51,812 bases of DNA, from positions 1 through 51,812 of the forward strand of contig MNWW01000020.1 of NCBI GenBank assembly GCA_001871415.1. The letters run 5' to 3'. Source of the stretch: Candidatus Woesearchaeota archaeon CG1_02_57_44 (GTDB taxonomy: Archaea; Nanobdellota; Nanobdellia; Woesearchaeales; CG1-02-57-44). Made by a program: the position numbers and the translations under genes. Positions 29,145 through 50,725 of this stretch are shown here, in pieces. Every line of letters starts with the position of its first letter. The first letter of the stretch is position 1. The notes below the pieces were generated by a model, which was given only the letters and a program-made list of their open reading frames with translations, did not search any database and was not told the origin of the DNA.

Positions 29145-30377
29145 TCAGGCTGCGGAGTCGAAACGCTCAGCCACAACCTTCACCGCGTCTGCTCTCGCCG
29201 CAGTCGCGGTGCGCTTGAGCCAGTCGAACAATTCCTGGTCCAGGAAACGTATCGGTCTTACTAGTCCCAGATAGTCGCAGGCCTGCGTGTATGCCTTGAT
29301 GAATTGCCGATGGTGGTGTATGCCTTGCAGTTCCTTGAGCGTGTCTGAGAATACGTCAGGTTCCAGGCCTGCGAGCGAGACCGTGAGATTCTCCCGCAGG
29401 TATGCTCCTATGCTCCTGTTATCCAGCCAGCGCTGCTCAGGCGACAGTGAGCGGATACTCACATTGTGAAGCTGTCTGGCGAGTCCGATGGTGTAGCACA
29501 TGAGCCTTCCGAGATAGTACGTTCCATCTTGGCTGGTCGGGGTGAATTCCTTATCGCTCATCTTCTCGGCGCGTCCCGCGTCAGTCTCGCGTGCGATAGC
29601 GCAGAGCGTGCCATACATGGTCTTGAGTCTAGGCTGCTCGATGCTGAAGCTCTCTCGATGCTGCGTCTCCGCGAACATGGCGACGCCCTCGGTGTAGGTG
29701 TCGCAGAAGATGGTGTACAATGGCGCCATGCAGCCGAGCCAATTGTTGCCGTCGCGTTCCATCCACTGCTCGATGCGGTCCTGCATGGCATACTCTCGAT
29801 TGTAGAGCCCGCGTTTGTGCTCGACCTGATGCTCGAGCTCGTGCGAGAGGGTGCGCAGAAAGAAGCTCGCGTCGAAGCGTCCGGTGAGCAGCCACGGCAC
29901 GTACATCCTGCCTAGCAGCGTCTGCCCGGATATCCAGAGCCAGACATGGTCCGGGGTGGAGATGATCTCGTCATGGTAGGCCAATAGGTCCTTCTTGATG
30001 CCGTCGACGACCTTGACCGTGAAGACCACCTTCTCCTCACCGTCCAGCACGCCGCGCATATCGCCGGCGAGAAGGTGATCGAGCATCTGCAGGAAGAGCT
30101 TGGCCGTGACGGTGCAGAACTCATCGAAGCTGTGCCGTGGGAGGCCGCCGCGTCGGGCGAGACCCTCGGTGATATCGTCCCGCTTGTAGATATGATAGAG
30201 GTTGCGGCTCAGGTACGCGTGCTCCGCCTGTTCTGCCTCACTCAGTTCTGCGCCCGTGTTTATCTTGAGCAGCAGCTGCAGAAAGTGTGCGTATTTCACG
30301 GCGCGGAACTGCAGGAAGTCCATGGAGACCTCGGCAATGGTTCCGCCGAAATCCAATGATAGGCGTGTTGTTGGCAC
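29145..30377 (-). CDS. Putative Zn-dependent peptidase (gluzincin-like)
   Basis: HELEH, downstream TEGVA third-ligand motif, and YYLG. Confidence 0.6.
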   Translation of the reverse strand: MPTTRLSLDFGGTIAEVSMDFLQFRAVKYAHFLQLLLKINTGAELSEAEQAEHAYLSRNLYHIYKRDDITEGLARRGGLPRHSFDEFCTVTAKLFLQMLDHLLAGDMRGVLDGEEKVVFTVKVVDGIKKDLLAYHDEIISTPDHVWLWISGQTLLGRMYVPWLLTGRFDASFFLRTLSHELEHQVEHKRGLYNREYAMQDRIEQWMERDGNNWLGCMAPLYTIFCDTYTEGVAMFAETQHRESFSIEQPRLKTMYGTLCAIARETDAGRAEKMSDKEFTPTSQDGTYYLGRLMCYTIGLARQLHNVSIRSLSPEQRWLDNRSIGAYLRENLTVSLAGLEPDVFSDTLKELQGIHHHRQFIKAYTQACDYLGLVRPIRFLDQELFDWLKRTATAARADAVKVVAERFDSAA

Positions 30378-30502: not shown

Positions 30503-31609
30503 ATGGCTGAACAGTTGTCCGCGGCCCAGCGCCACAAGCTCAAGCGTTTCATCGAGGTACTGGAAAAGCCGCGCGGCCGCAACACGGAGTTGGTCACGGT
30601 CTATGTGCCTGCGGGCTACGAGCTTACCAAAGTCATCCAGCAGCTCGCGCAGGAGCAGGGGACAGCGACCAATATCAAGAGCACGACCACGAGAAAGAAT
30701 GTCCTCTCCGGCCTCGAGCGCATGATCCAGCACCTGCGCCTCTACGACAAGACACCACCGCATGGCCTCGCTGCCTTTTCTGGTAATGTCGCGGAGCAGG
30801 AAGGGCAGCAGGATGTCGGTGTCTGGAGCATTGAGCCTCCGATGGAGCTCAAGATCCGCATATACCGCTGCGACAAGCAATTCATCCTTGAGCCCTTGCA
30901 GGAGATGCTTGAGGTGCACGAGCTCTATGGCCTGATAGTCATGGACCGTCGCGACGCTTCGTTGGCGACCCTCAAGGGCAAGCTCATCACCACGTTGGTC
31001 GAGACGCGCTCGAGCGTCCCCGGAAAGTTCAAGGCGGGCGGTCAGTCGGCGGCGAGGTTCGCGCGCATCAGGGAAGGCGAGGCATTGGCCTTCTACAAGA
31101 AGGTCGCGGATTACGCGAAAGACCAGTTTTTGCATCTTAATCTCAAGGGTCTGCTCATCGGCGGTCCTGGCCCGAATAAGCATGAGTTTGTCGACGGTGG
31201 TTTCCTGACGGGTGATCTGGCCAAGAAAGTCATTGCCGTCAAAGACCTCAGCTATACCGGCGACTTCGGACTGCAGGAGCTGCTCGAGCGCTGTCAGGAT
31301 GTGTTGGCCGCGGAAGAGGTGGCGAAGGAAAAAGTCCTGGTCAATGATTTTCTCAAGCGTCTGGCGACGAGTCCTGGCTCTGCCTGCTACGGTAAGGATG
31401 AGACATTGCGCCTGCTCAAGATGGGCACGATTGATATCGTCCTGCTCAGTGAGAGCACAGACGATAAACTCATCGACGAGTTCGAGGCCATCGCCGTGCA
31501 GTTCGGCACCCGCGTCGAGCTCATCAGCGCGGACACGCGCGAAGGCGCGCAGCTCCAGCAGATAGGGGGCATCGCGGGCATGCTGCGCTATGAGGTGCAG
31601 GATGCCTGA
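30503..31609 (+). CDS. prf1: Peptide chain release factor aRF1
   Basis: TATNIKS, YRCD and GGQS motifs. Confidence 0.97.
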   Translation: MAEQLSAAQRHKLKRFIEVLEKPRGRNTELVTVYVPAGYELTKVIQQLAQEQGTATNIKSTTTRKNVLSGLERMIQHLRLYDKTPPHGLAAFSGNVAEQEGQQDVGVWSIEPPMELKIRIYRCDKQFILEPLQEMLEVHELYGLIVMDRRDASLATLKGKLITTLVETRSSVPGKFKAGGQSAARFARIREGEALAFYKKVADYAKDQFLHLNLKGLLIGGPGPNKHEFVDGGFLTGDLAKKVIAVKDLSYTGDFGLQELLERCQDVLAAEEVAKEKVLVNDFLKRLATSPGSACYGKDETLRLLKMGTIDIVLLSESTDDKLIDEFEAIAVQFGTRVELISADTREGAQLQQIGGIAGMLRYEVQDA

Positions 31610-32255
31610 TCTTGTGGCAGAGGCGTATGAGCACCTGATGCAAAAGCCTTGCCCCTACGAGACAAAGCTCACTTATTCCGGCAGGTTCAAGTCATACAAC
31701 GCGCATCTGAGGCGCACATGGAAACTGCTTGAAGTCAGAGCGTCAAGAGAGTGGGAGGATATCGACCGCGACATCCAACGGGGACTCATCCAGAGTCTGC
31801 TATCTCGTTTCTACAAGTCTGCTCCCAGGACATCATACATCGACCTCTATGACGCTTTCATCCGCAACCTGCACAAGGCGATAATCAACCACGTGCAGGA
31901 CCCGTTGCTCAAGGCGTCTTTTGAGCGCGTCAACGAGCGGATGCTCGACGGCATGCTGGGCGAGTGCAACCTCAAGTGGTCTGGCTCGTCGGCAAGGGTG
32001 CTGGGCACCTACGAGTACGCGTCCGATACCATCCGCATCAGCAAAGCAGTCGCGCATGACCTGGAGCTGCTCGACTATGTCATGTACCACGAGATGCTCC
32101 ACAAGAAGCATAAGTTCTATACTGCGGGACGTCGGACCTTCCATCATACGCGCGCGTTCCTGCGTGATGAAAAAAAGTTTCCAGGCCGTGACGCGCTCGA
32201 GCGTCGTCTCAGCTACCTGTGCCGCCGCCGAGGACTGCGTCGGGATGGTAGCTGA
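31602..32255 (+). CDS. SprT/YgjP-like metalloprotease-fold protein
   Basis: LGTY, DYVMYHEMLH and HHT..F motifs. Confidence 0.8.
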   Translation: MPDLVAEAYEHLMQKPCPYETKLTYSGRFKSYNAHLRRTWKLLEVRASREWEDIDRDIQRGLIQSLLSRFYKSAPRTSYIDLYDAFIRNLHKAIINHVQDPLLKASFERVNERMLDGMLGECNLKWSGSSARVLGTYEYASDTIRISKAVAHDLELLDYVMYHEMLHKKHKFYTAGRRTFHHTRAFLRDEKKFPGRDALERRLSYLCRRRGLRRDGS

Positions 32256-32871
32256 GCTGTCTCGCGGCGATGATGTCACCATCCTGCATCGGATACAGTC
32301 CATGCAGGAACGTGCGCAGCGCCGCGAGATCAGCGTCACGCATGGTGATGGAGAGCGGAAGCACGCCTGCGAGATGGCGCAGGTAGATGCCTTGGGGGTT
32401 GTCCAGGTTGTCCGGGACGACGGGGGGGAGCGTATGCACCAGGACGCCCTGTTCGAACGCGTGGTTGTACGCGTAGCCTCTGGCGTGCAGGTCTGCTAGC
32501 ACATGGTAGGTCTTTTGCGCTGTGGTGCCGCAGTCCAGTCGAGCGGAGATATCTTCCAAGCATGAAAGGCCGGATATCTCTCGTTCGGCGTAGAATTTAT
32601 CGCTGACCCTGGTGATGCTGGTATACGGGCTTCTGCCTTGCTCGCCCTGCAGGCCGAACAATGTTTTGACAAGCTCTCGTTCATGGGGCTTGTCACCGTC
32701 GCGGGTGGAGAATGAGCGCACGATGAACGCCTGGGTTGTGGCGGCGCCAGCAGATTCGAGCACCACGCGCGAATAGAGCTCACGCTGGTGCGGGTTGAGC
32801 GTGAGGGTCTCATAGGACAGGAGTCTGCCCGAAAGCCCCAGCTCGCTCAATGCTTCTTGGATGTCGATCAT
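32209..32871 (-). CDS. Protein-kinase-like fold protein, probably catalytically degenerate
   Basis: ERE helix C, EREISG hinge, LADLHARGYAYNH and MRDAD. ATGA overlap with the synthetase gene. Confidence 0.5.
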   Translation of the reverse strand: MIDIQEALSELGLSGRLLSYETLTLNPHQRELYSRVVLESAGAATTQAFIVRSFSTRDGDKPHERELVKTLFGLQGEQGRSPYTSITRVSDKFYAEREISGLSCLEDISARLDCGTTAQKTYHVLADLHARGYAYNHAFEQGVLVHTLPPVVPDNLDNPQGIYLRHLAGVLPLSITMRDADLAALRTFLHGLYPMQDGDIIAARQLSYHPDAVLGGGTGS

Positions 32872-34397
32872 GGTGTATCACCTATCGCTGCAAGTATATT
32901 GTTGCGGGATGGACGCAGGTTCTCGATGATGGCGCCCATGACGATGAGTTCTGAGAGGTTCGGGCCTCGTCCGTCGCCAAGGGTTACCTGGTGCGCCGCG
33001 CGCATGACATCGACACGGTTGGAATCCTTGTACACATGGTGGCTGACCACTGGGTCCTGATATTGCTGGCGGATATGCTGGTCACGCTGGACCAGCTGCA
33101 GCTCCAGACGCAGTCCGCCAGGGGTCTGGACAGCATAGTGGATGGCCTCGTAGTAGGAGGTGTTGCCCTCACCGTCGATGCGCTCACGGCGGAAGCGGCC
33201 TGTGCGGTTGTCTATCTCGATGAGATACGGCATGCCTGGGGTGGGGATGTGATGTGCGCTTTGGATGATGTACTTGTCCGCGTCGACCATGGTGCCTGAA
33301 TACCTGTCAAGGGCATGAGTATTGTGGTCGTAGTGGTCGGGGTTGAACCGGAACAGCTCCCGGACGGTATTATCGATAAGGTAGGTCAGTCCAGGATAAT
33401 GCGCTTCATGGACCACGATTCGCATGGCGCCAAGATCAGAGAACGCGTCCACATCGAAGGCAGGCGTCACAGCATACTGCACGAGCTTGATGAAGAAATC
33501 TTGCTTCGTCCTGCTGCTTAGGTCGAAGGCATAGGGGCGCAGGTCCGCGTGTGATGGAGAAGAAGGGTTCTGGCGCATCTCTTCAAGCGTCTGCTGGAGT
33601 GGGCCTATGAGGTATCCCATATTCATGCGCCTGGAGCGCTCCCCGCGTCTGCGGTCGACCCGTGAGAGGTGGTGCGCTGATATATCCTCATCCGTCAGAT
33701 GCTGGGCGGCGGCGAAGATGGGATGTCCCTGGCCGAAATAGCCGTTCTGTGCGAGCAGGTGGACAAGATCGGTCTGTATGGTGGCCCTGTCCCTCGGCAA
33801 GTCGGGGTCGGATTTGGCGATGACCGATGCAAAGACGCGCCGGCAGATCTCCTGCTCGATGCTGCTCCAATCGTGCGCGCATGGCCTGAATCGTTCACGT
33901 CTGCCCACGAGGACGGCGTTGCTCTGCTGATGACTGCCAGCGACGACCCTGCTCGATTCTACGCGGAGCTGCTCGCAGTGCTTCCCCTGATGGAAATAGA
34001 GGTCGGTGTAGAGCAGCGCTTCGGTGCCTGGGAGGGTGTCCTGCCCGAAGGGGATGATGGCCTTGCCGAGTTCCAGAGGGCCTTCCTCGGTATCGGCCAC
34101 GGGTCTTATGGTATGATACAGCGCCCTTGATGATTGATGTCCAAGGAGTGCCTGCAGACCTCCAGGGGCGCTGGCCATCATGCTGGTGGTGTCTTCCAGC
34201 GCGCTGGTGTGGCGGGCGAGGAAGTCCTGCACGCCCAGGTGCGCCTGCGCGGCCTCATCGTCGCGGAGGATGGTGCCCCACAGTCCGAGGGTCCCGTCCT
34301 CCGGGACAAGCTCCTGCCAGTCGAGGTCTGCGTATGGGTGCGCTAGTTCGAGCGCCGTGTCGTAGACTTCGCCAGGGCTGTTGAACCGGATGCTCAT
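32868..34397 (-). CDS. Stand-alone RelA/SpoT-type nucleotide pyrophosphokinase (SAS-like) with unknown N-terminal region
   Basis: SRTK...IKL, FSDLGAMRIVV, DKYI, YYEAIH, LELQL and SHHVYKD motifs. ATG 34397 overlaps the upstream TGA. Confidence 0.8.
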   Translation of the reverse strand: MSIRFNSPGEVYDTALELAHPYADLDWQELVPEDGTLGLWGTILRDDEAAQAHLGVQDFLARHTSALEDTTSMMASAPGGLQALLGHQSSRALYHTIRPVADTEEGPLELGKAIIPFGQDTLPGTEALLYTDLYFHQGKHCEQLRVESSRVVAGSHQQSNAVLVGRRERFRPCAHDWSSIEQEICRRVFASVIAKSDPDLPRDRATIQTDLVHLLAQNGYFGQGHPIFAAAQHLTDEDISAHHLSRVDRRRGERSRRMNMGYLIGPLQQTLEEMRQNPSSPSHADLRPYAFDLSSRTKQDFFIKLVQYAVTPAFDVDAFSDLGAMRIVVHEAHYPGLTYLIDNTVRELFRFNPDHYDHNTHALDRYSGTMVDADKYIIQSAHHIPTPGMPYLIEIDNRTGRFRRERIDGEGNTSYYEAIHYAVQTPGGLRLELQLVQRDQHIRQQYQDPVVSHHVYKDSNRVDVMRAAHQVTLGDGRGPNLSELIVMGAIIENLRPSRNNILAAIGDTP

Positions 34398-35884
34398 TGT
34401 GTGCGCCCCGTATCGATGTACTGTTTCATGGTGCGAAGATAGTCCAGGGTCAGTAGTCTCCCTGCGCGCCATGGCTTGCCGTGCAGCTGCGCATGAAGGT
34501 CTAGCGACCCATAGGTGTGCAGCGCGGCCATCTGGGTGCTTTCGGCGCCATAGGCGGTGTCAGGGCGTGACACGATGCGGGTGCGTTCCAGGTGCAGGTT
34601 GCGCCCGGACTCAAGGACCAGCGCAGCGTAGGCGGTGTCGAGCAGGTCTTGTGTCCCCGGCGGTCGTTCTTTCATGACGCTCCAGACTTCATCGCCTATC
34701 AGCGATGCCTTGGTGGTGACTTTGCGCCTGGCGCGAGGGTCATCTCCGACAGTGCGCAGATTGCTCGTGATGTCGCATGCTGCTTTTGCGATGAGTCCTG
34801 TGGCGTAATCTTCGCGGCCTGCCCGCAACGCGAGTATGGCCTGGTTGCCCAGGTTGCGAAGGTACCCCTCCTTGTAGTGGTACAACCGTATGGCATTGAG
34901 CAGGTTGGGATCATCCAGGGGTGAGTAGCCGGCGAAATATTCTGTCGGATGCGCCTGCCAGGAGTTCCAGAGTGCCAGGCGATCGTCCAGGGTGGGGTGT
35001 GGGATTTCTGGTTGATACTCTGGTCGTTCATGCTCTACGATGTCTTCTGTCCGAAGGGGATTGCCTGGTCCGATGTCTTGCCATCGGTCAGTGCCTTCAG
35101 CATATGCCGTGACGAACGCGCCGACGTTTGCTTGCATCTCTCTGAAGTGTTCTGGGACCTGGATGTGCGACAGGGTGTCGAGCACCAGCTGCGCCCGGTC
35201 AGCGCGGTCCATCTGCGCGAGCATGCCTCTGACACGATGGGGGCGGGGAGCCCACGACGCTTTCTGGTGGGCTCTGTTTGTCAGGCTCCCGGTGATGTTG
35301 CGCACCAAAATGGAGCTGAAATCCGTGAGCGCCCAGACCTGGTCGGCCACATCGGGGCCGCTCATCTCGCCGATGGCGGCTATCCAGGAGAGGGCGTCAT
35401 CCCAGTTGTTGCTGAGGTCCTCGACAGCGTCATGGACCATGGTTATCTTCCGCAGCTCCGGGGACACATATTGTCTCCTGGCGACAGCAAGCTCCTCGAG
35501 GCGGCGCGCGCGAAAGGTGCAGTCGAGCGGATGCGAGGCTGCGGACACAGCGGTGAACTGGCGTTGCGTGTGGAGGAACTTGCCCATGATGAACGCGTAT
35601 TCCTGCTCAAGTCCAGCACCGATGGTGCCTCGCATTTCCAGGTAGGGGACCCAACGATGGTATTTGTTGATCTCCATCTCGAAAGGGTCTGTTCCCGCGT
35701 ACCTCATCAGGTCTGTAGCGTCATGCATGTGCGCGTAGGCCGCGAATCCCATGTCCGCCTCCATGCGGTGCCGATAGAGCTGACGCTCGAGAAGGCCAAG
35801 ATGCCGGTCTGTCAGCAAGTGGATGCGAGGCGTCAACGAGACCAGCGAATGCTTCGTACGCAATAACCTGCCCAGAGGGTCCAT
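34394..35884 (-). CDS. Stand-alone RelA/SpoT-type HD hydrolase (SAH-like) with insertion
   Basis: FLHTQR...SHPL, HDAVED, G.DVADQVWALTD and K..CD..SNLRT motifs. TATA about 25 nt upstream of ATG 35884. Confidence 0.8.
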   Translation of the reverse strand: MDPLGRLLRTKHSLVSLTPRIHLLTDRHLGLLERQLYRHRMEADMGFAAYAHMHDATDLMRYAGTDPFEMEINKYHRWVPYLEMRGTIGAGLEQEYAFIMGKFLHTQRQFTAVSAASHPLDCTFRARRLEELAVARRQYVSPELRKITMVHDAVEDLSNNWDDALSWIAAIGEMSGPDVADQVWALTDFSSILVRNITGSLTNRAHQKASWAPRPHRVRGMLAQMDRADRAQLVLDTLSHIQVPEHFREMQANVGAFVTAYAEGTDRWQDIGPGNPLRTEDIVEHERPEYQPEIPHPTLDDRLALWNSWQAHPTEYFAGYSPLDDPNLLNAIRLYHYKEGYLRNLGNQAILALRAGREDYATGLIAKAACDITSNLRTVGDDPRARRKVTTKASLIGDEVWSVMKERPPGTQDLLDTAYAALVLESGRNLHLERTRIVSRPDTAYGAESTQMAALHTYGSLDLHAQLHGKPWRAGRLLTLDYLRTMKQYIDTGRTQ

Positions 35885-36017
35885 TCCATCCGCAGCACCT
35901 CTTTCCCATTTATAAGCTTTTCTATTTGTTGTTACTTTATAGTTAATACTTTGAAGGTTGGGGGACTCTGCCAACCTCCCGCAAACCTTTTTATAGCCGC
36001 TACATTCCTCTCGTCTC

Positions 36018-36245
36018 ATGGCTGAACAATCCAAGAATGAACAATCCCGCGCTGAGCGCGTCGGCTTTCACAAGGGGGCGCTATCGACACTGGCAAAAGA
36101 GCGCCAGGAGCTTGGTCGCATTCTCGGCATCGTAGAGCAACTCATGCAGGCGCATGTGCAGTCCCTCAAGGAACTGGGCGTCGATCTCGTGGCAGAAGCC
36201 GAGAAGGCAAAGAAGCAAAAGCCCATAGAGGACATGATCAATTAG
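36018..36245 (+). CDS. Small conserved hypothetical protein
   Basis: Coding-like 75-aa ORF (GFHKGALSTLAKER) with TATA TTTTTATA upstream. Confidence 0.75.
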   Translation: MAEQSKNEQSRAERVGFHKGALSTLAKERQELGRILGIVEQLMQAHVQSLKELGVDLVAEAEKAKKQKPIEDMIN

Positions 36246-36254
36246 TGTGAGTGC

Positions 36255-36842
36255 ATGCGTAAATCCTCTGCCCCCATTGCTGTCCACCATATGACTCCTG
36301 TGCAGGCCAGGACATATCCTTCTGTTCAGGCCAATGCGTCTTCTCCTGTGAGCTTTACTTGCAAAGGGCACCCGAACATCAGGGCTGCCCACGCGAGCAC
36401 CATTGAGTTCACTAGGGACGAAACGCTGACAACACAAGGCGACTGCATCATCGGTATTGCCTGTGATTTCACGTCTGAGCACTGCCGCTCGCTGCCGCAG
36501 GGTCGCGCGCGTATAATGCTTCAGCTGCAGACAGAATCCGCAGATGGCGTCAGTTCCGCAGAACAATTGCGTGATTCCTTCACCTCAGAGATAATCGAAG
36601 GATTCAACCATCATGAGATGGTCTTTCGGCGCAGCGTGTTCCACAGTGAGCGTACGGCAGGCATCCGCGCTGACAAGGCCGCGTGCAACATCAATCGCAG
36701 CATTATCTACGCGCTGCAGAATCCTGATACGAGGATGACGGTCACGATCGCACCCGCTGACGAGGAGATCTCCACGCATGCTGTCCATCCAATGAAGATT
36801 CCAAAACAACGGCAAGCGCCTATCGGAGGAACCAGGCAATGA
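36255..36842 (+). CDS. DUF371 family protein
   Basis: GHPNIRAAH.STIEFT, GDCIIG and ADKAA motifs. Confidence 0.88.
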   Translation: MRKSSAPIAVHHMTPVQARTYPSVQANASSPVSFTCKGHPNIRAAHASTIEFTRDETLTTQGDCIIGIACDFTSEHCRSLPQGRARIMLQLQTESADGVSSAEQLRDSFTSEIIEGFNHHEMVFRRSVFHSERTAGIRADKAACNINRSIIYALQNPDTRMTVTIAPADEEISTHAVHPMKIPKQRQAPIGGTRQ

Positions 36843-37321
36843 AGCGAAAGCAACTGAGCAAACGCGACATCAGGGAGCTGACAGCCAGGATACAGCAGAC
36901 CTTTGGCGATGCGGCGGTCGCGACGTTGCCGAAAGATGTCATCGCGTTGCAGGACAGCGATCTTTGTGTCTACGCGTCCACCGGCGGATCAGCCAAGTCT
37001 CTCTTCTTCGAGCGCGACAGCAGCATCTATCCGACCATCACCACCGCTGCGACTATCCTTCCCAAAGTCGCAATTGACTTGGGCGCAATCAAGTTCGTGC
37101 TCAAGGGAGCGGACCTCATGCGCCCGGGAGTCACGGGCATCAAAGAGGAATTCCACGAGAACAGCCCTGTGGCGATCATCGCCGGTGAAGGATTGTGCGT
37201 CGCCGTCGGCATCGCGTTGCAGTCCTCGGATATCATGCGCGGCTCCTCGTCGGGAAAATGCGTGCAGATAATCCACCGTGGCGCTGATGTGATAGACAAG
37301 GCGCTTGAAAGTCCGCAGTGA
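36839..37321 (+). CDS. PUA-domain RNA-binding protein (DUF1947/MCT-1-like)
   Basis: DLGAIKFVLKGADLMRPG and GK.V..IH..D motifs. Confidence 0.88.
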   Translation: MKRKQLSKRDIRELTARIQQTFGDAAVATLPKDVIALQDSDLCVYASTGGSAKSLFFERDSSIYPTITTAATILPKVAIDLGAIKFVLKGADLMRPGVTGIKEEFHENSPVAIIAGEGLCVAVGIALQSSDIMRGSSSGKCVQIIHRGADVIDKALESPQ

Positions 37322-47890: not shown

Positions 47891-48001
47891 GGCACTGCCG
47901 GAACAGGGGGCGTTTTATAAAGGTTTCCCTGCGGATTCTGGAAACTCCGCCCCGCAAACTATTTAAACCCTCCGGGATTCAACACTTGTGGGGGGTATAT
48001 T

Positions 48002-50725
48002 TTGAACACGACACTGCCTCCTCCGCTTCCGCCGGAGGAGCTACTCAAACGGCTGAAGCAGGACCAGCCTCGGCTGGGTACGATCAAGGATGATCTGGCC
48101 AAGATGGGCCAGTTGCTCGACCGTATCAAGGAACTCGATTCTAAGGTTGCGGGCCTTGCCACGCATCAGAAGGAGCAGGCCGTCAATGCGCACGCTGAGC
48201 ATCTCTCGCAGACACTTTCTGAGCTCAACAAGGCGATAGCCAATGAGAAAAAGACGCTCACCAAGGTACAGAATTCAGTAGCGACCAAGCAGAGCGTGAT
48301 GGGTCGCGTGCTCAAGAGCAAGGCGCAGCGAGTGGCTGCTGAGACAGAAGAGCTCGAGCGCGTGCGCCAGCACGCGGCGCAGGAGCAGGCAAAGCTTGAG
48401 GCAGGCATCAAGGCGCTCAAGCAGCGCAAGGAATCATTGTCAGAGGAGTTGCGCGGCTTTGACCGGCAGCTGAGAGAGGCGCAGCAGAAGCATCAGCAGG
48501 CTATGGCGCAGATGGCTGCTGAGGAGAAGCAGGCCGCGGCGAGGCTCGCGGCAGAGCAGCGTCAGCTGGAAAAAGTCGACAAGCTCGCGATAGCAAAGGC
48601 GCAGAAGGCGCAGGAGCAGGAGAAGGCGCTGCAGCTTCTGGAGAAGGCGCTGGAGGAGCAGAAGGCAGAACTGGACGAGGCCGAGCATATGCTCAGGGCC
48701 GGCAACCTGACCTTGCAGAAGGATCGCAGGAAGTGGGTGCGCAAGCTTGAGCAGCTTAAGGTCGATCTGGCCAAGACGCAGTCGGCTCGCGACAAGGCGG
48801 CCGAGGACGTGCGCGAGAAGCGCGATGAGATGCTCGGGCGCGAGCGCGCCATCGCGGCCAAGGAGCACGAGCTCACGAGGCGTGAGCAGGCGCTTGCGGA
48901 CGAGGTCTCGGGCAGGAAGACGCGGGAGCAGGAAGTGGCCCAGAAGGAGTCTGCGCTGTCTCAGTTAGAGGATCAGCTCGAGCGTCAGCAGGAGAAATAT
49001 GCTGCTTGGGAAAAGGAGCTCGCCAAGCGCGAGACCACCGTCGCCGCGCGCGAGCATGAAGCGGCTGAGGCATTGCAGAAGCTGTCCGGCAGGAAGCAGG
49101 ATATCATCGACGACCTGAGTCAGGGCATCGCGGACAGGGAAGCAGAACTCCGGGAGCGCGAAGCGGAGCTCAAAGACGATCTCAAGGAACTCAAGACCCA
49201 GCAGAAGCAGCTGGCTGACCAGGAGTCTGATCTGCGAAACCTCGAAGCGGAGCTGCAGGGCCAGGAGGATCACATCAAGGAGCGCGAGGACGCGCTCGAG
49301 CACAAGGTTGCTGGCATGCTGGCCAAGGAGAAGAGTCTCTCCCAGTTGCAAAAGGATATCGAGATGGCAAAGCAGAAGCTGGACGCGCGCGAGCAGGCGC
49401 TCAGGCAGGCAGCAGAGCAGGAGAAGCACTTCCTGCAGCTGAAAAAAGAAGCAGAGCAGCAGCGCCAGGACATGCTCAAGAACGAGGAGCTCTTGCAGCG
49501 CAGCCTGGAGACGTTGGCTGCGCGTGAGCAGGACCTGAAAGCGCGTGAGTCTGAGCTGGCATCGTTGGACAACCAAGTGCTTATGCACCAGAAGCTGTTG
49601 GACGCGCGCGAGAAGGAGCTTGAGGAATCCGAGCAGCGCATGCAGGCCATGCTGCAGAAGGTTGAGCAGGCGACAGCGGGGGTCGCGGCGCAGGAGGCGG
49701 CGCTCAAGAAAAAAGAGCAGGATCTGCAGGGCATCGAGAAGAAGAAGGACGCTCTGGATACTACTATCAAGACTGAGGAAGGAAAGCTCAAGGCCATGGC
49801 CTCGCAGCTGGCCGACAAGGAAGCAACGCTGCAAAAGGAGCGAAGGGCGCTTGCCGACCTGCGCCTGGAGCTTGACGAGCGTCAGCGCGTGCTCGACGGA
49901 CGCGACAATGCGTTGGCAGAGAAGGACGCTGAAGTCACCAGGGTGCAGCTGGATATCGACGGCAAGCTCAAGGAGGCGCTCGAGCTTGAGGAGTCGGTCA
50001 AGGCGCGTGTGGAGCAGCGCAAAGCGGACGCGGAGCGCGAGATGTCCAGAAAGCTTGATGAGGTCGCGCGTCTGGAGTCAGTGCTGAAAAAAGAGCTTGA
50101 CGATGTCGAGGCGCGCGAGCGCAAGGTGCAAAGGGCGAAGGAAGCCATCATGGACATAGAGAAGCTCGAGGCCGACCTGAAGCGCCTTGATACTATCTAC
50201 CAGAACAAGTCCAAGGAGCTTGAGCTGCTCGACAGCCACGTCAAGGCGAGGCAGGAGGACTTTAGGGCGCGCGAGGAGCGCATGGCCGCGCGCGAGCAGG
50301 AGCTTGAGCGGCAGCTGAATCTGGTGCTAGGCATCCGCGACCAGCTCAAGCCCGCGCACATACCGGATACGCCGGCCGTGAAGATGGGCGAGGCCAGGAG
50401 CGCAGCCAGAAGAGCGCACACCAAGCAGCATCGTGATGGCTCATCTCCTGCTGCATCATCAGAGGGTCCTGTCGTGTCCCATTCCCATCCATCCCGGCCA
50501 GCCCTGAGCAAGTCCCTGCGCGGCCAAGCCAAGAGCATCCAGGCAATGCTCGAGCAGTGCGAGGACTACGTGCGCCTGGGCAAGCTCGAGGACGCGCGCG
50601 ACCTCTATGAGCGCGTGAGCGCGGTGCTTGACACGGCGAGGATAAACAAGGCGCAGAAGCGCGAATTCTTCGTGCAGGCCAGCGAGCTCTACAATGAAAT
50701 CCACATGGGCATGATGGGGGAGTGA
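48002..50725 (+). CDS. Long coiled-coil protein
   Basis: About 750 aa of E/K/Q/A/L heptads, a disordered linker and a short helical C-terminal domain; no ATPase motifs. Confidence 0.85.
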   Translation: MNTTLPPPLPPEELLKRLKQDQPRLGTIKDDLAKMGQLLDRIKELDSKVAGLATHQKEQAVNAHAEHLSQTLSELNKAIANEKKTLTKVQNSVATKQSVMGRVLKSKAQRVAAETEELERVRQHAAQEQAKLEAGIKALKQRKESLSEELRGFDRQLREAQQKHQQAMAQMAAEEKQAAARLAAEQRQLEKVDKLAIAKAQKAQEQEKALQLLEKALEEQKAELDEAEHMLRAGNLTLQKDRRKWVRKLEQLKVDLAKTQSARDKAAEDVREKRDEMLGRERAIAAKEHELTRREQALADEVSGRKTREQEVAQKESALSQLEDQLERQQEKYAAWEKELAKRETTVAAREHEAAEALQKLSGRKQDIIDDLSQGIADREAELREREAELKDDLKELKTQQKQLADQESDLRNLEAELQGQEDHIKEREDALEHKVAGMLAKEKSLSQLQKDIEMAKQKLDAREQALRQAAEQEKHFLQLKKEAEQQRQDMLKNEELLQRSLETLAAREQDLKARESELASLDNQVLMHQKLLDAREKELEESEQRMQAMLQKVEQATAGVAAQEAALKKKEQDLQGIEKKKDALDTTIKTEEGKLKAMASQLADKEATLQKERRALADLRLELDERQRVLDGRDNALAEKDAEVTRVQLDIDGKLKEALELEESVKARVEQRKADAEREMSRKLDEVARLESVLKKELDDVEARERKVQRAKEAIMDIEKLEADLKRLDTIYQNKSKELELLDSHVKARQEDFRAREERMAAREQELERQLNLVLGIRDQLKPAHIPDTPAVKMGEARSAARRAHTKQHRDGSSPAASSEGPVVSHSHPSRPALSKSLRGQAKSIQAMLEQCEDYVRLGKLEDARDLYERVSAVLDTARINKAQKREFFVQASELYNEIHMGMMGE

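Follow-up and report, generated by a model that had tools for sequence, protein, structure and literature searches.

A candidate split hydrolase and synthetase pair of the RelA/SpoT type beside a conserved gene cluster in a woesearchaeotal archaeon

Can an archaeon hold the two opposing activities of a RelA/SpoT homologue (RSH) as separate proteins? The question is raised by three overlapping minus-strand genes, called g1, g2 and g3 here, on contig MNWW01000020.1 of Candidatus Woesearchaeota archaeon CG1_02_57_44 (assembly GCA_001871415.1; 77 contigs, 1.53 Mb, 82 per cent complete), whose positions 1 to 51,812 were analysed and are referred to as the window. The first, g1 (34394-35884, 496 aa), is an RSH-type HD protein, resembling an alarmone pyrophosphohydrolase and carrying a large insertion; the second, g2 (32868-34397, 509 aa), begins with an unrecognised N-terminal region of ∼290 aa and continues as an RSH synthetase-like (SYNTH) domain; the third, g3 (32209-32871, 220 aa), is an orphan of unrecognised fold. 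All three are open reading frames (ORFs) with ATG starts. With a probability of about two in three, g1 and g2 are read here as a split RSH module for housekeeping or signalling that sits at a position conserved in its lineage.

Earlier accounts report that so far (p)ppGpp has been found in no archaeon (PMC8646023), treat archaeal RSHs as rare transfers from bacteria (PMC3153485), and count them only where annotation pipelines recognise them, with RelA/SpoT in 41.7 per cent of Woesearchaeota and 69 per cent of Diapherotrites (PMC8407392). A preliminary description of the window had called RSHs sporadic in archaea, a statement that fails for this lineage both by that published share of Woesearchaeota and by the present comparison, in which 183 of 401 genomes of the order match the Pfam family PF04607 (178 above cut-off, mostly through ORFs of ∼650 aa). 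Its view that the DNA comes from a DPANN-like archaeon was reasonable: the window encodes the release factor aRF1, eRF1-domain genes are present in all five relatives tested and, among the control genomes, in archaea only, and the order spans at least 136 families with small genomes of 0.6-2.7 Mb. In what follows G codes denote relatives of the same order (G000 being the genome of the window itself) and L codes denote loci of those relatives.

Two adjacent genes with RSH catalytic motifs

The junctions between the three genes were read directly, and two ATGA overlaps join the minus-strand genes as had been described. The stop of g1 shares 34394-34397 with the start of g2 (g1 ends ACA CAA TGA, and the ATG of g2 is 34397-34395), and the stop of g2 shares 32868-32871 with the start of g3 (g2 ends ACA CCA TGA, and the ATG of g3 is 32871-32869). 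The ATGA start of g2 is likely rather than proven; an alternative ATG lies at 34472, from which the frame is open. In codon-usage log-odds the annotated frame is the best of six for g1, g2 and g3, with values of 0.216, 0.305 and 0.284 bits per codon. Codon positions 1/2/3 of the three have a GC of 0.64-0.66/0.42-0.44/0.72-0.73 compared with 0.60/0.44/0.72 in the long ORFs of the genome, and regional GC resembles the remainder of the window. Given native codon usage and matching GC, the three are therefore real, native genes; the extension of the ORF upstream of g1 (35885-36034) has a negative codon-usage score.

Contigs of other public groundwater metagenomes (runs X1, X3 and X4, of which X1 may be the source sample) run across both junctions and show no indels. 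A contig of X3 covers 32579-35403 with one substitution and no indels, and contigs of X4 cover 34356-34581 and 32780-32970, that is, both junctions, with no difference. The worry that an assembly error stands between g1 and g2, which the preliminary description had itself raised, was checked in this way; the split is kept in all three runs and is therefore no artefact of assembly.

Standard searches recognise none of the three proteins. Neither Pfam with NCBIfam at E ≤ 0.1 nor Pfam at E ≤ 10 gave a meaningful match (a KRAB match at 0.064 was dismissed as meaningless), and TGS and ACT were detected in none of the three. PADLOC and PHROGs returned nothing meaningful either, a BstA match to g3 at 0.071 and a match of g1 to phrog_990 ('metal-dependent phosphohydrolase') at 0.2 not being counted. 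Among PDB sequences g1 and g3 had no matches and g2 drew viral phosphoproteins only (E 0.088-0.12), none of them significant, while a search of 5.8 billion protein clusters returned only 100 per cent-identical fragments for g1 and g2 and nothing for g3. An exhaustive HMMER search with g2 through 1.84 billion representatives found three fragments of g2 itself and one repeat protein, P0005 (E 2.9e-4), which was rejected as spurious because this Pre-ATP-grasp protein has seven repeats that inflate its score. In the 60 relatives searched g2 was not found. The Pfam check for HD_4 and RelA_SpoT that had been proposed at the outset came out empty, since HD_4 (PF13328) does not match g1 even at E ≤ 10 and PF04607 has no match in the whole genome at E ≤ 10.

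The evidence on g1 begins with its few homologues. Against 400 relatives it gave two weak matches, in G047 (E 2.7e-4) and G022 (E 0.00997), both E-values being per genome; the former protein is matched by Pfam HD at E 0.001 and the latter by Pfam HD_4 with 27.7 bits, above the cut-off of 27.2. BLASTP of g1 against its homologues reaches 1e-6 across 156 residues and 7e-6 for the block that holds HD..ED and G..V..V..LT, and a second, colinear segment pair aligns AKAACDITSNLRT of g1 with VKLS-DSIDNIRT, covering the K..D..N.RT motif. A jackhmmer search from g1 through 14,807 ORFs, including all 12,599 six-frame ORFs of its own genome, converged on the proteins of G047 and G022 and one of G345. In the four-sequence alignment of g1 with these homologues (A3) H118, H151, D152, E155, D156, G176, A180, V183 and T187 are invariant and K..D..N.RT of g1 aligns with KL.D..D..RT, and g1 itself holds H..R, HP, HD..ED, G..V..V..(L)T and K..D..N in this order. 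This list of motifs is in part general background on the family, and the order's long RSHs served as a check on it.

When the A3 profile was run against all PDB sequences at E ≤ 1, all 16 matches were RSH hydrolase-domain chains (best E 1.1e-4), namely N-terminal fragments of Rel/RelA/SpoT, MESH1/HDDC3, Drosophila Mesh1 and Lmo0812; the profile also matches the HD region of the relatives' long RSHs. By hhalign g1 aligns with the HD profile at P 0.004-0.008, a score reached by none of 155 shuffles, and the one ORF that outscored it among 71 real control ORFs is itself an HD-domain protein. The ESM Atlas structure rows for g1 are HD_4 clusters in ten of ten cases, with template-modelling (TM) scores by row of up to 0.77. 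An ordered HD composite pattern, composed after g1 had been seen, matches only g1 among the 12,599 ORFs, none of 251,980 shuffled ORFs and, among the order's canonical long RSHs, 9 of 28. Judged by its sequence, g1 is a RelA/SpoT-type HD protein, and the motifs named in the preliminary description are present.

The large insertion attributed to g1 is also real. From HD..E to K..D..N there are 216 residues in g1 and 63-69 in four long RSHs, and the same interval is expanded to 92-160 in the HD proteins of relatives described below (four of seven fit the pattern). The small alarmone hydrolases (SAHs) of the Mesh1/HDDC3 kind (PDB 3nr1, 5vxa, 3nqw and 4yf1) share with g1 the HD core, matched by A3 at E 3.4e-4 to 8.6e-3, and its metal and substrate motifs. 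Unlike these proteins of ∼180 aa, g1 has 496 aa, with an insertion of ∼150 aa separating the fourth HD motif from the fifth, and extensions at both the N- and the C-terminus.

The second protein, g2, is very probably an RSH synthetase-domain protein, a fold predicted from its motifs and from how its scores compare with controls. The motifs RTK (residues 294-296), DLGAMRI (321-327), GRFRR (∼399-403), YEAIH (416-420), ELQ (432-434) and HHVYK (453-457) are present in order, much as first described, behind an N-terminal region that had been put at ∼300 aa and measures ∼290. This region matches nothing. The notion that it is a degenerate HD domain arose from ESM structure rows and a forced global hhalign alignment (P 0.0035) and was rejected on local hhalign alignments (P ≥ 0.24); tandem duplication of g1 and g2 was rejected too, with BLASTP giving only E 0.14.

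The SYNTH profile picks up g2 in HMMER through two colinear stretches, 302-332 and 414-461 (full-sequence E 0.0097 in a space of 13,606 sequences), which include DLGAMRI, YEAIH, ELQ and HHVYK, and in iterated profile searches g2 is the top match among the 12,599 ORFs of its own genome (E 0.0054-0.022). Its 15.3 bits are reached by none of 3000 shuffles (maximum 5.7), and a profile of long RSHs only gives it 11.0 against a shuffle maximum of 6.9. By hhalign g2 aligns with SYNTH at P 3.2e-4 to 9e-4 and a probability of 38.9 per cent at best; the cross-pairs g1/SYNTH, g2/HD and g3 with either profile all have P ≥ 0.22, and none of 71 real ORFs of 350-700 aa reaches the score of g2. A five-motif ordered SYNTH pattern, again composed with g2 in view, matches g2 alone among the 12,599 ORFs, none of 251,980 shuffles and 27 of 28 long RSHs. 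In the ESM Atlas g2 (feature score 0.94) has 206 of 256 features in common with a cluster of which 12 per cent of members carry RelA_SpoT, and the nine structure rows returned for it are without exception RSH clusters, the highest TM by row being 0.65; this is a lead from a low-confidence model. The spacing from Syn2 to Syn3 is 95 residues in g2 and 44 in long RSHs, and the acceptor site of g2 may therefore be remodelled.

A conserved position in relatives

Facing g1 on the plus strand lie three genes that recur beside such pairs: orf75 (36018-36245; 75 aa, no Pfam family above cut-off), a DUF371 gene (36255-36842; PF04027, E 1.5e-27) and a PUA-domain gene (36839-37321), which is a homologue of a G022 ORF with Pre-PUA, DUF1947 and PUA. 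Of 401 genomes from the order, 350 contain orf75 at E ≤ 1e-5, in single copy and with 54-74 per cent identity, which makes it a core small protein, nearly universal in the order, with no assigned function. The tallies for PF04607, for the alignment A2 introduced below and for orf75 include the unpublished genomes G182 and G244, and that for orf75 also includes the unpublished G335, G273, G337, G370, G120, G205, G111, G303, G209, G315, G374, G131 and G207; the loci described here all come from other genomes.

Each homologue of g1 is followed by a SYNTH-type gene (589 aa, E 5e-9 in G022; 810 aa, E 6e-5 in G345; E 0.0016 in G047, where it consists of two ORFs of 343 and 196 aa), and g2 sits exactly in the slot that this gene occupies. 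The SYNTH gene of G047 (L115, G047:C27, 1087-2684) is split into overlapping ORFs, which could reflect a frameshift or decay. In G022 (L114, G022:C2, 7595-10507) the HD_4 gene (378 aa) and the SYNTH gene (589 aa) are in frame with one TAA between them, and the pair has the look of a fused HD-SYNTH protein that was split recently or is read through.

In several further relatives there are proteins, 390-510 aa long, whose C-terminal part matches RelA_SpoT weakly. The divergent HD proteins of relatives were aligned as A1 and their proteins with an N-terminal region followed by RelA_SpoT as A2. Among the 11 genomes whose SYNTH protein covers all or most of A2, seven have an HD-type gene immediately upstream of it in the same orientation. 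Compared profile against profile with RSH, the relatives' pair proteins give a probability of 97.6 per cent for HD (E 4e-12) and 98.4 per cent for SYNTH (E 7e-15), which assigns them firmly to the RSHs. These proteins resemble g1 and g2 in size (HD ∼315-526 aa, SYNTH ∼390-510 aa), in gene order and in neighbourhood; they differ in that none of the seven in A1 and none of the nine in A2 shows the canonical motif patterns that g1 and g2 keep.

Of 15 loci examined in relatives, 11 have homologues of orf75, DUF371 or PUA next to HD and/or SYNTH genes, the cluster genes lying directly upstream of HD-SYNTH pairs or beside a lone SYNTH gene; in G233 orf75 is 255 nt upstream of the HD gene. The window also carries, besides aRF1, an MscS-like gene and a DRG-type GTPase ORF (so labelled from its sequence and a 53 per cent-identical match beside aRF1 in G010), and the G010 locus likewise has aRF1, DRG and an MscS-like gene nearby. 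Because orf75 is nearly universal, it was used as an anchor for sampling blind to RSH, in which the best 40 matches were taken regardless of RSH content, with already-seen and unpublished genomes left out and 13 of the 40 under 6 kb. HD and/or SYNTH genes lie downstream on the same strand in 10 of these 40 loci at a profile E ≤ 1e-3, in 13 at E ≤ 0.05, and in 18 when ORFs with a bare HD..E motif are counted as well. The synteny comparison that the preliminary description had proposed thus finds both the HD-then-SYNTH order and the neighbourhood conserved, and this conserved gene position is the strongest independent support for reading the locus as RSH.

The long RSHs of the order are a different matter. 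The one checked in detail (L002) has HD_4, RelA_SpoT, TGS and ACT; like it, g1 and g2 have HD and then SYNTH with the same catalytic motifs, and unlike it they are two genes in different frames, with large insertions and without a detectable TGS or ACT, so that they fall outside the definition of a long RSH as one chain with a TGS C-terminal region. Long-RSH genes lie elsewhere, away from orf75-DUF371-PUA: none of 20 long-RSH loci carries any of these three genes, and a long RSH syntenic with the window was sought and found at none of the 20. As a group the canonical long RSHs (loci L002-L031) share 38-79 per cent identity (median 49 per cent), and the relatives' divergent pairs 13-29 per cent. 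No such long RSH was found in the genome of the window. The idea that the pair replaces a long RSH held in seven of seven A2-type genomes and was broken by G022, G047, G345, G263 and G114; with a long RSH present together with the pair or its HD gene in at least these five genomes, the pair is a second system and not simply a replacement. Unusual large RSH-like architectures also occur in the order, among them ORFs of 918, 955 and up to 1661 aa with weak RelA_SpoT (G116, L066 1732-4485; G036, L069 5226-8090; G082, L076).

Weighing the readings of the pair

If g1 and g2 form a split RSH module, they would be this genome's copy of a two-gene module kept downstream of orf75-DUF371-PUA in the order and inverted here. 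In that event g1 would act as an Mn-type HD 3'-pyrophosphohydrolase of the Mesh1/SpoT/Rel kind and g2 as a pyrophosphokinase with an RSH synthetase active site, and presumed co-transcription with translational coupling through ATGA would allow synthetase and hydrolase to be made together. Between them the two would then control how much of a 3'-pyrophosphorylated nucleotide is present, (p)ppGpp or (p)ppApp being the likeliest, and g3, an orphan added to the operon, may serve as regulator, partner or antidote.

Several observations weigh against this reading. The profile A2, made from the relatives' SYNTH proteins, matches neither g2 (by hhalign its E is only 0.048) nor anything else in the genome, a resemblance of g2 to the SYNTH partners of the g1 homologues was sought and not found, jackhmmer yielded no RSH link for g2, and g2 has no significant match in Pfam, with PF04607, in the PDB, in the 5.8 billion clusters or in the exhaustive HMMER search. 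In one round, with an intermediate SYNTH profile, g2 was outscored by a PEPCK gene (E 0.0032), and HMMER E-values near 0.01 are therefore unsafe here. With the HD profile HMMER misses g1 altogether (E 380), likely because 216 residues separate HD..E from K..D..N. Both composite patterns were drawn up with the proteins already in hand, confidence in the ESM Atlas models is low (pLDDT 0.44 and 0.50), and the single-sequence AlphaFold2 model of g2, made with no alignment, is unusable (pLDDT 31.9). In position, too, the locus departs from its relatives: g1 starts 134 nt from orf75 on the opposite strand, so the HD-SYNTH block is inverted, and g3 has no counterpart after the relatives' pairs.

Some of these points would be explained if the resemblance of g2 to RSH synthetases were due to chance and only g1 were an RSH protein, g2 and g3 being unrelated orphans; the want of a conventionally significant match for g2 in any search and the PEPCK false positive at E 0.003 on a similar profile speak in that direction. 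Set against them are five motifs in canonical order, scores that beat 3000 shuffles and 71 real-ORF controls, ESM Atlas neighbours of g2 that are all RSH and its place in the exact SYNTH slot of the g1 homologues, and coincidence appears very improbable. A real RSH fold might nevertheless work on something else, with g2 acting on the CCA end of tRNA or serving as a pseudo-enzyme scaffold and g1 attacking a different phosphoester. The sequence does not reveal the product, as the preliminary description had rightly said, the module stands among genes for RNA and translation (PUA, aRF1 and DRG), the Syn2-Syn3 spacing is 95 rather than 44, and tRNA-modifying RSH toxins have been reported (10.1101/2021.04.30.441581). 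Yet g2 keeps all motifs of the nucleotide-using synthetases, including the GRF+ segment, the Y..H of the G-loop, E.Q and H..YK, and g1 keeps the full HD catalytic set; a different substrate or a want of activity is distinctly unlikely.

The reading with the closest known model is that of a toxin-antitoxin or defence system. In the FaRel system, a toxic small alarmone synthetase (toxSAS) unit described as tricistronic, a small alarmone synthetase (SAS), FaRel, stands between the SAH antitoxin ATfaRel and a second antitoxin, AT2faRel (10.1101/575399). By analogy, g2 would be the toxin that arrests growth, g1 would break down its product as an SAH antitoxin of type IV, and g3 would be another antitoxin, acting by binding. 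The layout of g1-g2-g3 is indeed of this type, an SAS with neighbouring candidate antitoxin genes: an HD hydrolase, a synthetase directly downstream as a separate polypeptide and a third small gene without a family, all overlapping or tightly packed. The identity of only 13-29 per cent among the relatives' pairs, against the median of 49 per cent in long RSHs, fits as well, extreme sequence divergence being common in conflict systems. However, g1 and g2, at ∼500 aa each with large extra regions, are two to three times longer than typical SAH and SAS proteins, the third gene of the archaeal locus is not conserved, and the patchy, mobile or phage-linked distribution expected of such a system is not seen; in many families the pair instead stays at one place next to core genes that are nearly universal, with native codon usage and GC and with no PADLOC or PHROGs match. 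Fixed position by core genes, native codon usage and the absence of a defence-library match argue for housekeeping, and a toxSAS role is unlikely. Of the two possibilities first put forward for the locus, a split Rel module or a toxSAS/SAH system, the split module has gained support, and the toxSAS or defence reading is weakened by the fixed position.

A wider reading joins the split module to its neighbours. It holds that a second, unrecognised split RSH system exists in many DPANN-type archaea, that the pair is fixed downstream of orf75-DUF371-PUA with aRF1 and DRG close by in two genomes or more, that rapid evolution hides many of its copies, g1-g2 included, from standard family models, and that PUA, DUF371 and the 75-aa protein take over the ribosome or tRNA sensing done by the TGS and C-terminal domains of long RSHs. 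The tie to translation is guilt by association with PUA, DUF371, orf75, aRF1 and DRG, which hints at such a role, and taken as a whole this wider reading is conceivable but doubtful. If true, it would describe a modular archaeal form of the stringent response, to which the genome of the window adds an orphan third subunit.

Parts of this picture have precedents. RSHs in DPANN archaea (PMC8407392) and SAH-SAS operons (10.1101/575399) are already on record; new here are the split, Pfam-invisible HD/SYNTH pair with its orphan third gene and the positional conservation of such pairs by orf75-DUF371-PUA across many families. In the available portions of the literature on archaeal and DPANN RSH, alarmones and toxSAS no description of a split HD/SYNTH pair beside DUF371/PUA was found, which is weak evidence of absence; archaeal pairs of this kind may be listed already among the RSH subfamilies tabulated in the supplement to 10.1101/575399 or in the figures that accompany PMC8407392. 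A lineage of small-genome groundwater archaea thus keeps a separate, probable hydrolase and synthetase pair, largely invisible to Pfam, besides canonical long RSHs, and RSH censuses that depend on family hidden Markov models undercount. Should the pair be active, it would offer a compact system in which to ask whether archaea use alarmone signalling, to study opposing RSH activities as separate proteins and to ask whether a toxSAS-like layout also serves housekeeping control.

The third gene and the surroundings of the operon

No family or homologue of g3 was found in Pfam, NCBIfam, PDB sequences, PADLOC, PHROGs, the protein clusters or by jackhmmer, and by its sequence it is a lineage-specific orphan. 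The kinase fold that had been ascribed to it is not supported: its AlphaFold2 model has a pLDDT of 43.2, with only residues 1-90 (helix, three strands, helix, strand) reaching 50-73, and Foldseek of this poor model against the PDB gave no match at E ≤ 0.001 and no kinase among the matches listed, down to rank 50. A conserved third gene was also looked for in relatives, and the genes downstream of the pairs in G038, G001, G048 and G103 proved unlike each other and unlike g3. Those that follow SYNTH in G038 and G001 (L070 4316-4978 and L071 3604-4269) contain glycine-rich D.G.GD motifs resembling those of methyltransferases, one of the two matching Methyltransf_11 at E 0.044; both are unrelated to g3.

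Upstream of the operon, a TATA-like box, TTATAAAT, lies on the minus strand at 35908-35915, ∼27 nt from the ATG of g1 (35884), and is the predicted promoter. It falls within the 133-nt divergent intergenic region common to g1 and orf75, and a GAGGTG stands at 35901-35896. A second TATA-like element, CTATAAAAAG, is found near 35995-35986; the single TATA box described for the operon is therefore plausible as to TTATAAAT but not unique. Downstream, a run of seven T on the minus strand (32170-32176), 33-39 nt past the stop of g3, may be an archaeal oligo-T terminator. Rfam has no match in 31500-36500 at E ≤ 1, and hence no riboswitch is indicated there.

The last 47 nt of g3 overlap a convergent plus-strand ORF, 31590-32255, which also overlaps the end of aRF1 by 20 nt. 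This ORF and another flanking one on the minus strand (29145-30377), neither with a family, contain HExxH motifs (HEMLH and HELEH) and may be unannotated metalloproteases. Farther along the window, an AT skew of 0.335 and a GC skew of 0.165 at 48001-50000 coincide with a 907-aa ORF (48002-50725), which may encode a compositionally biased or repetitive protein.

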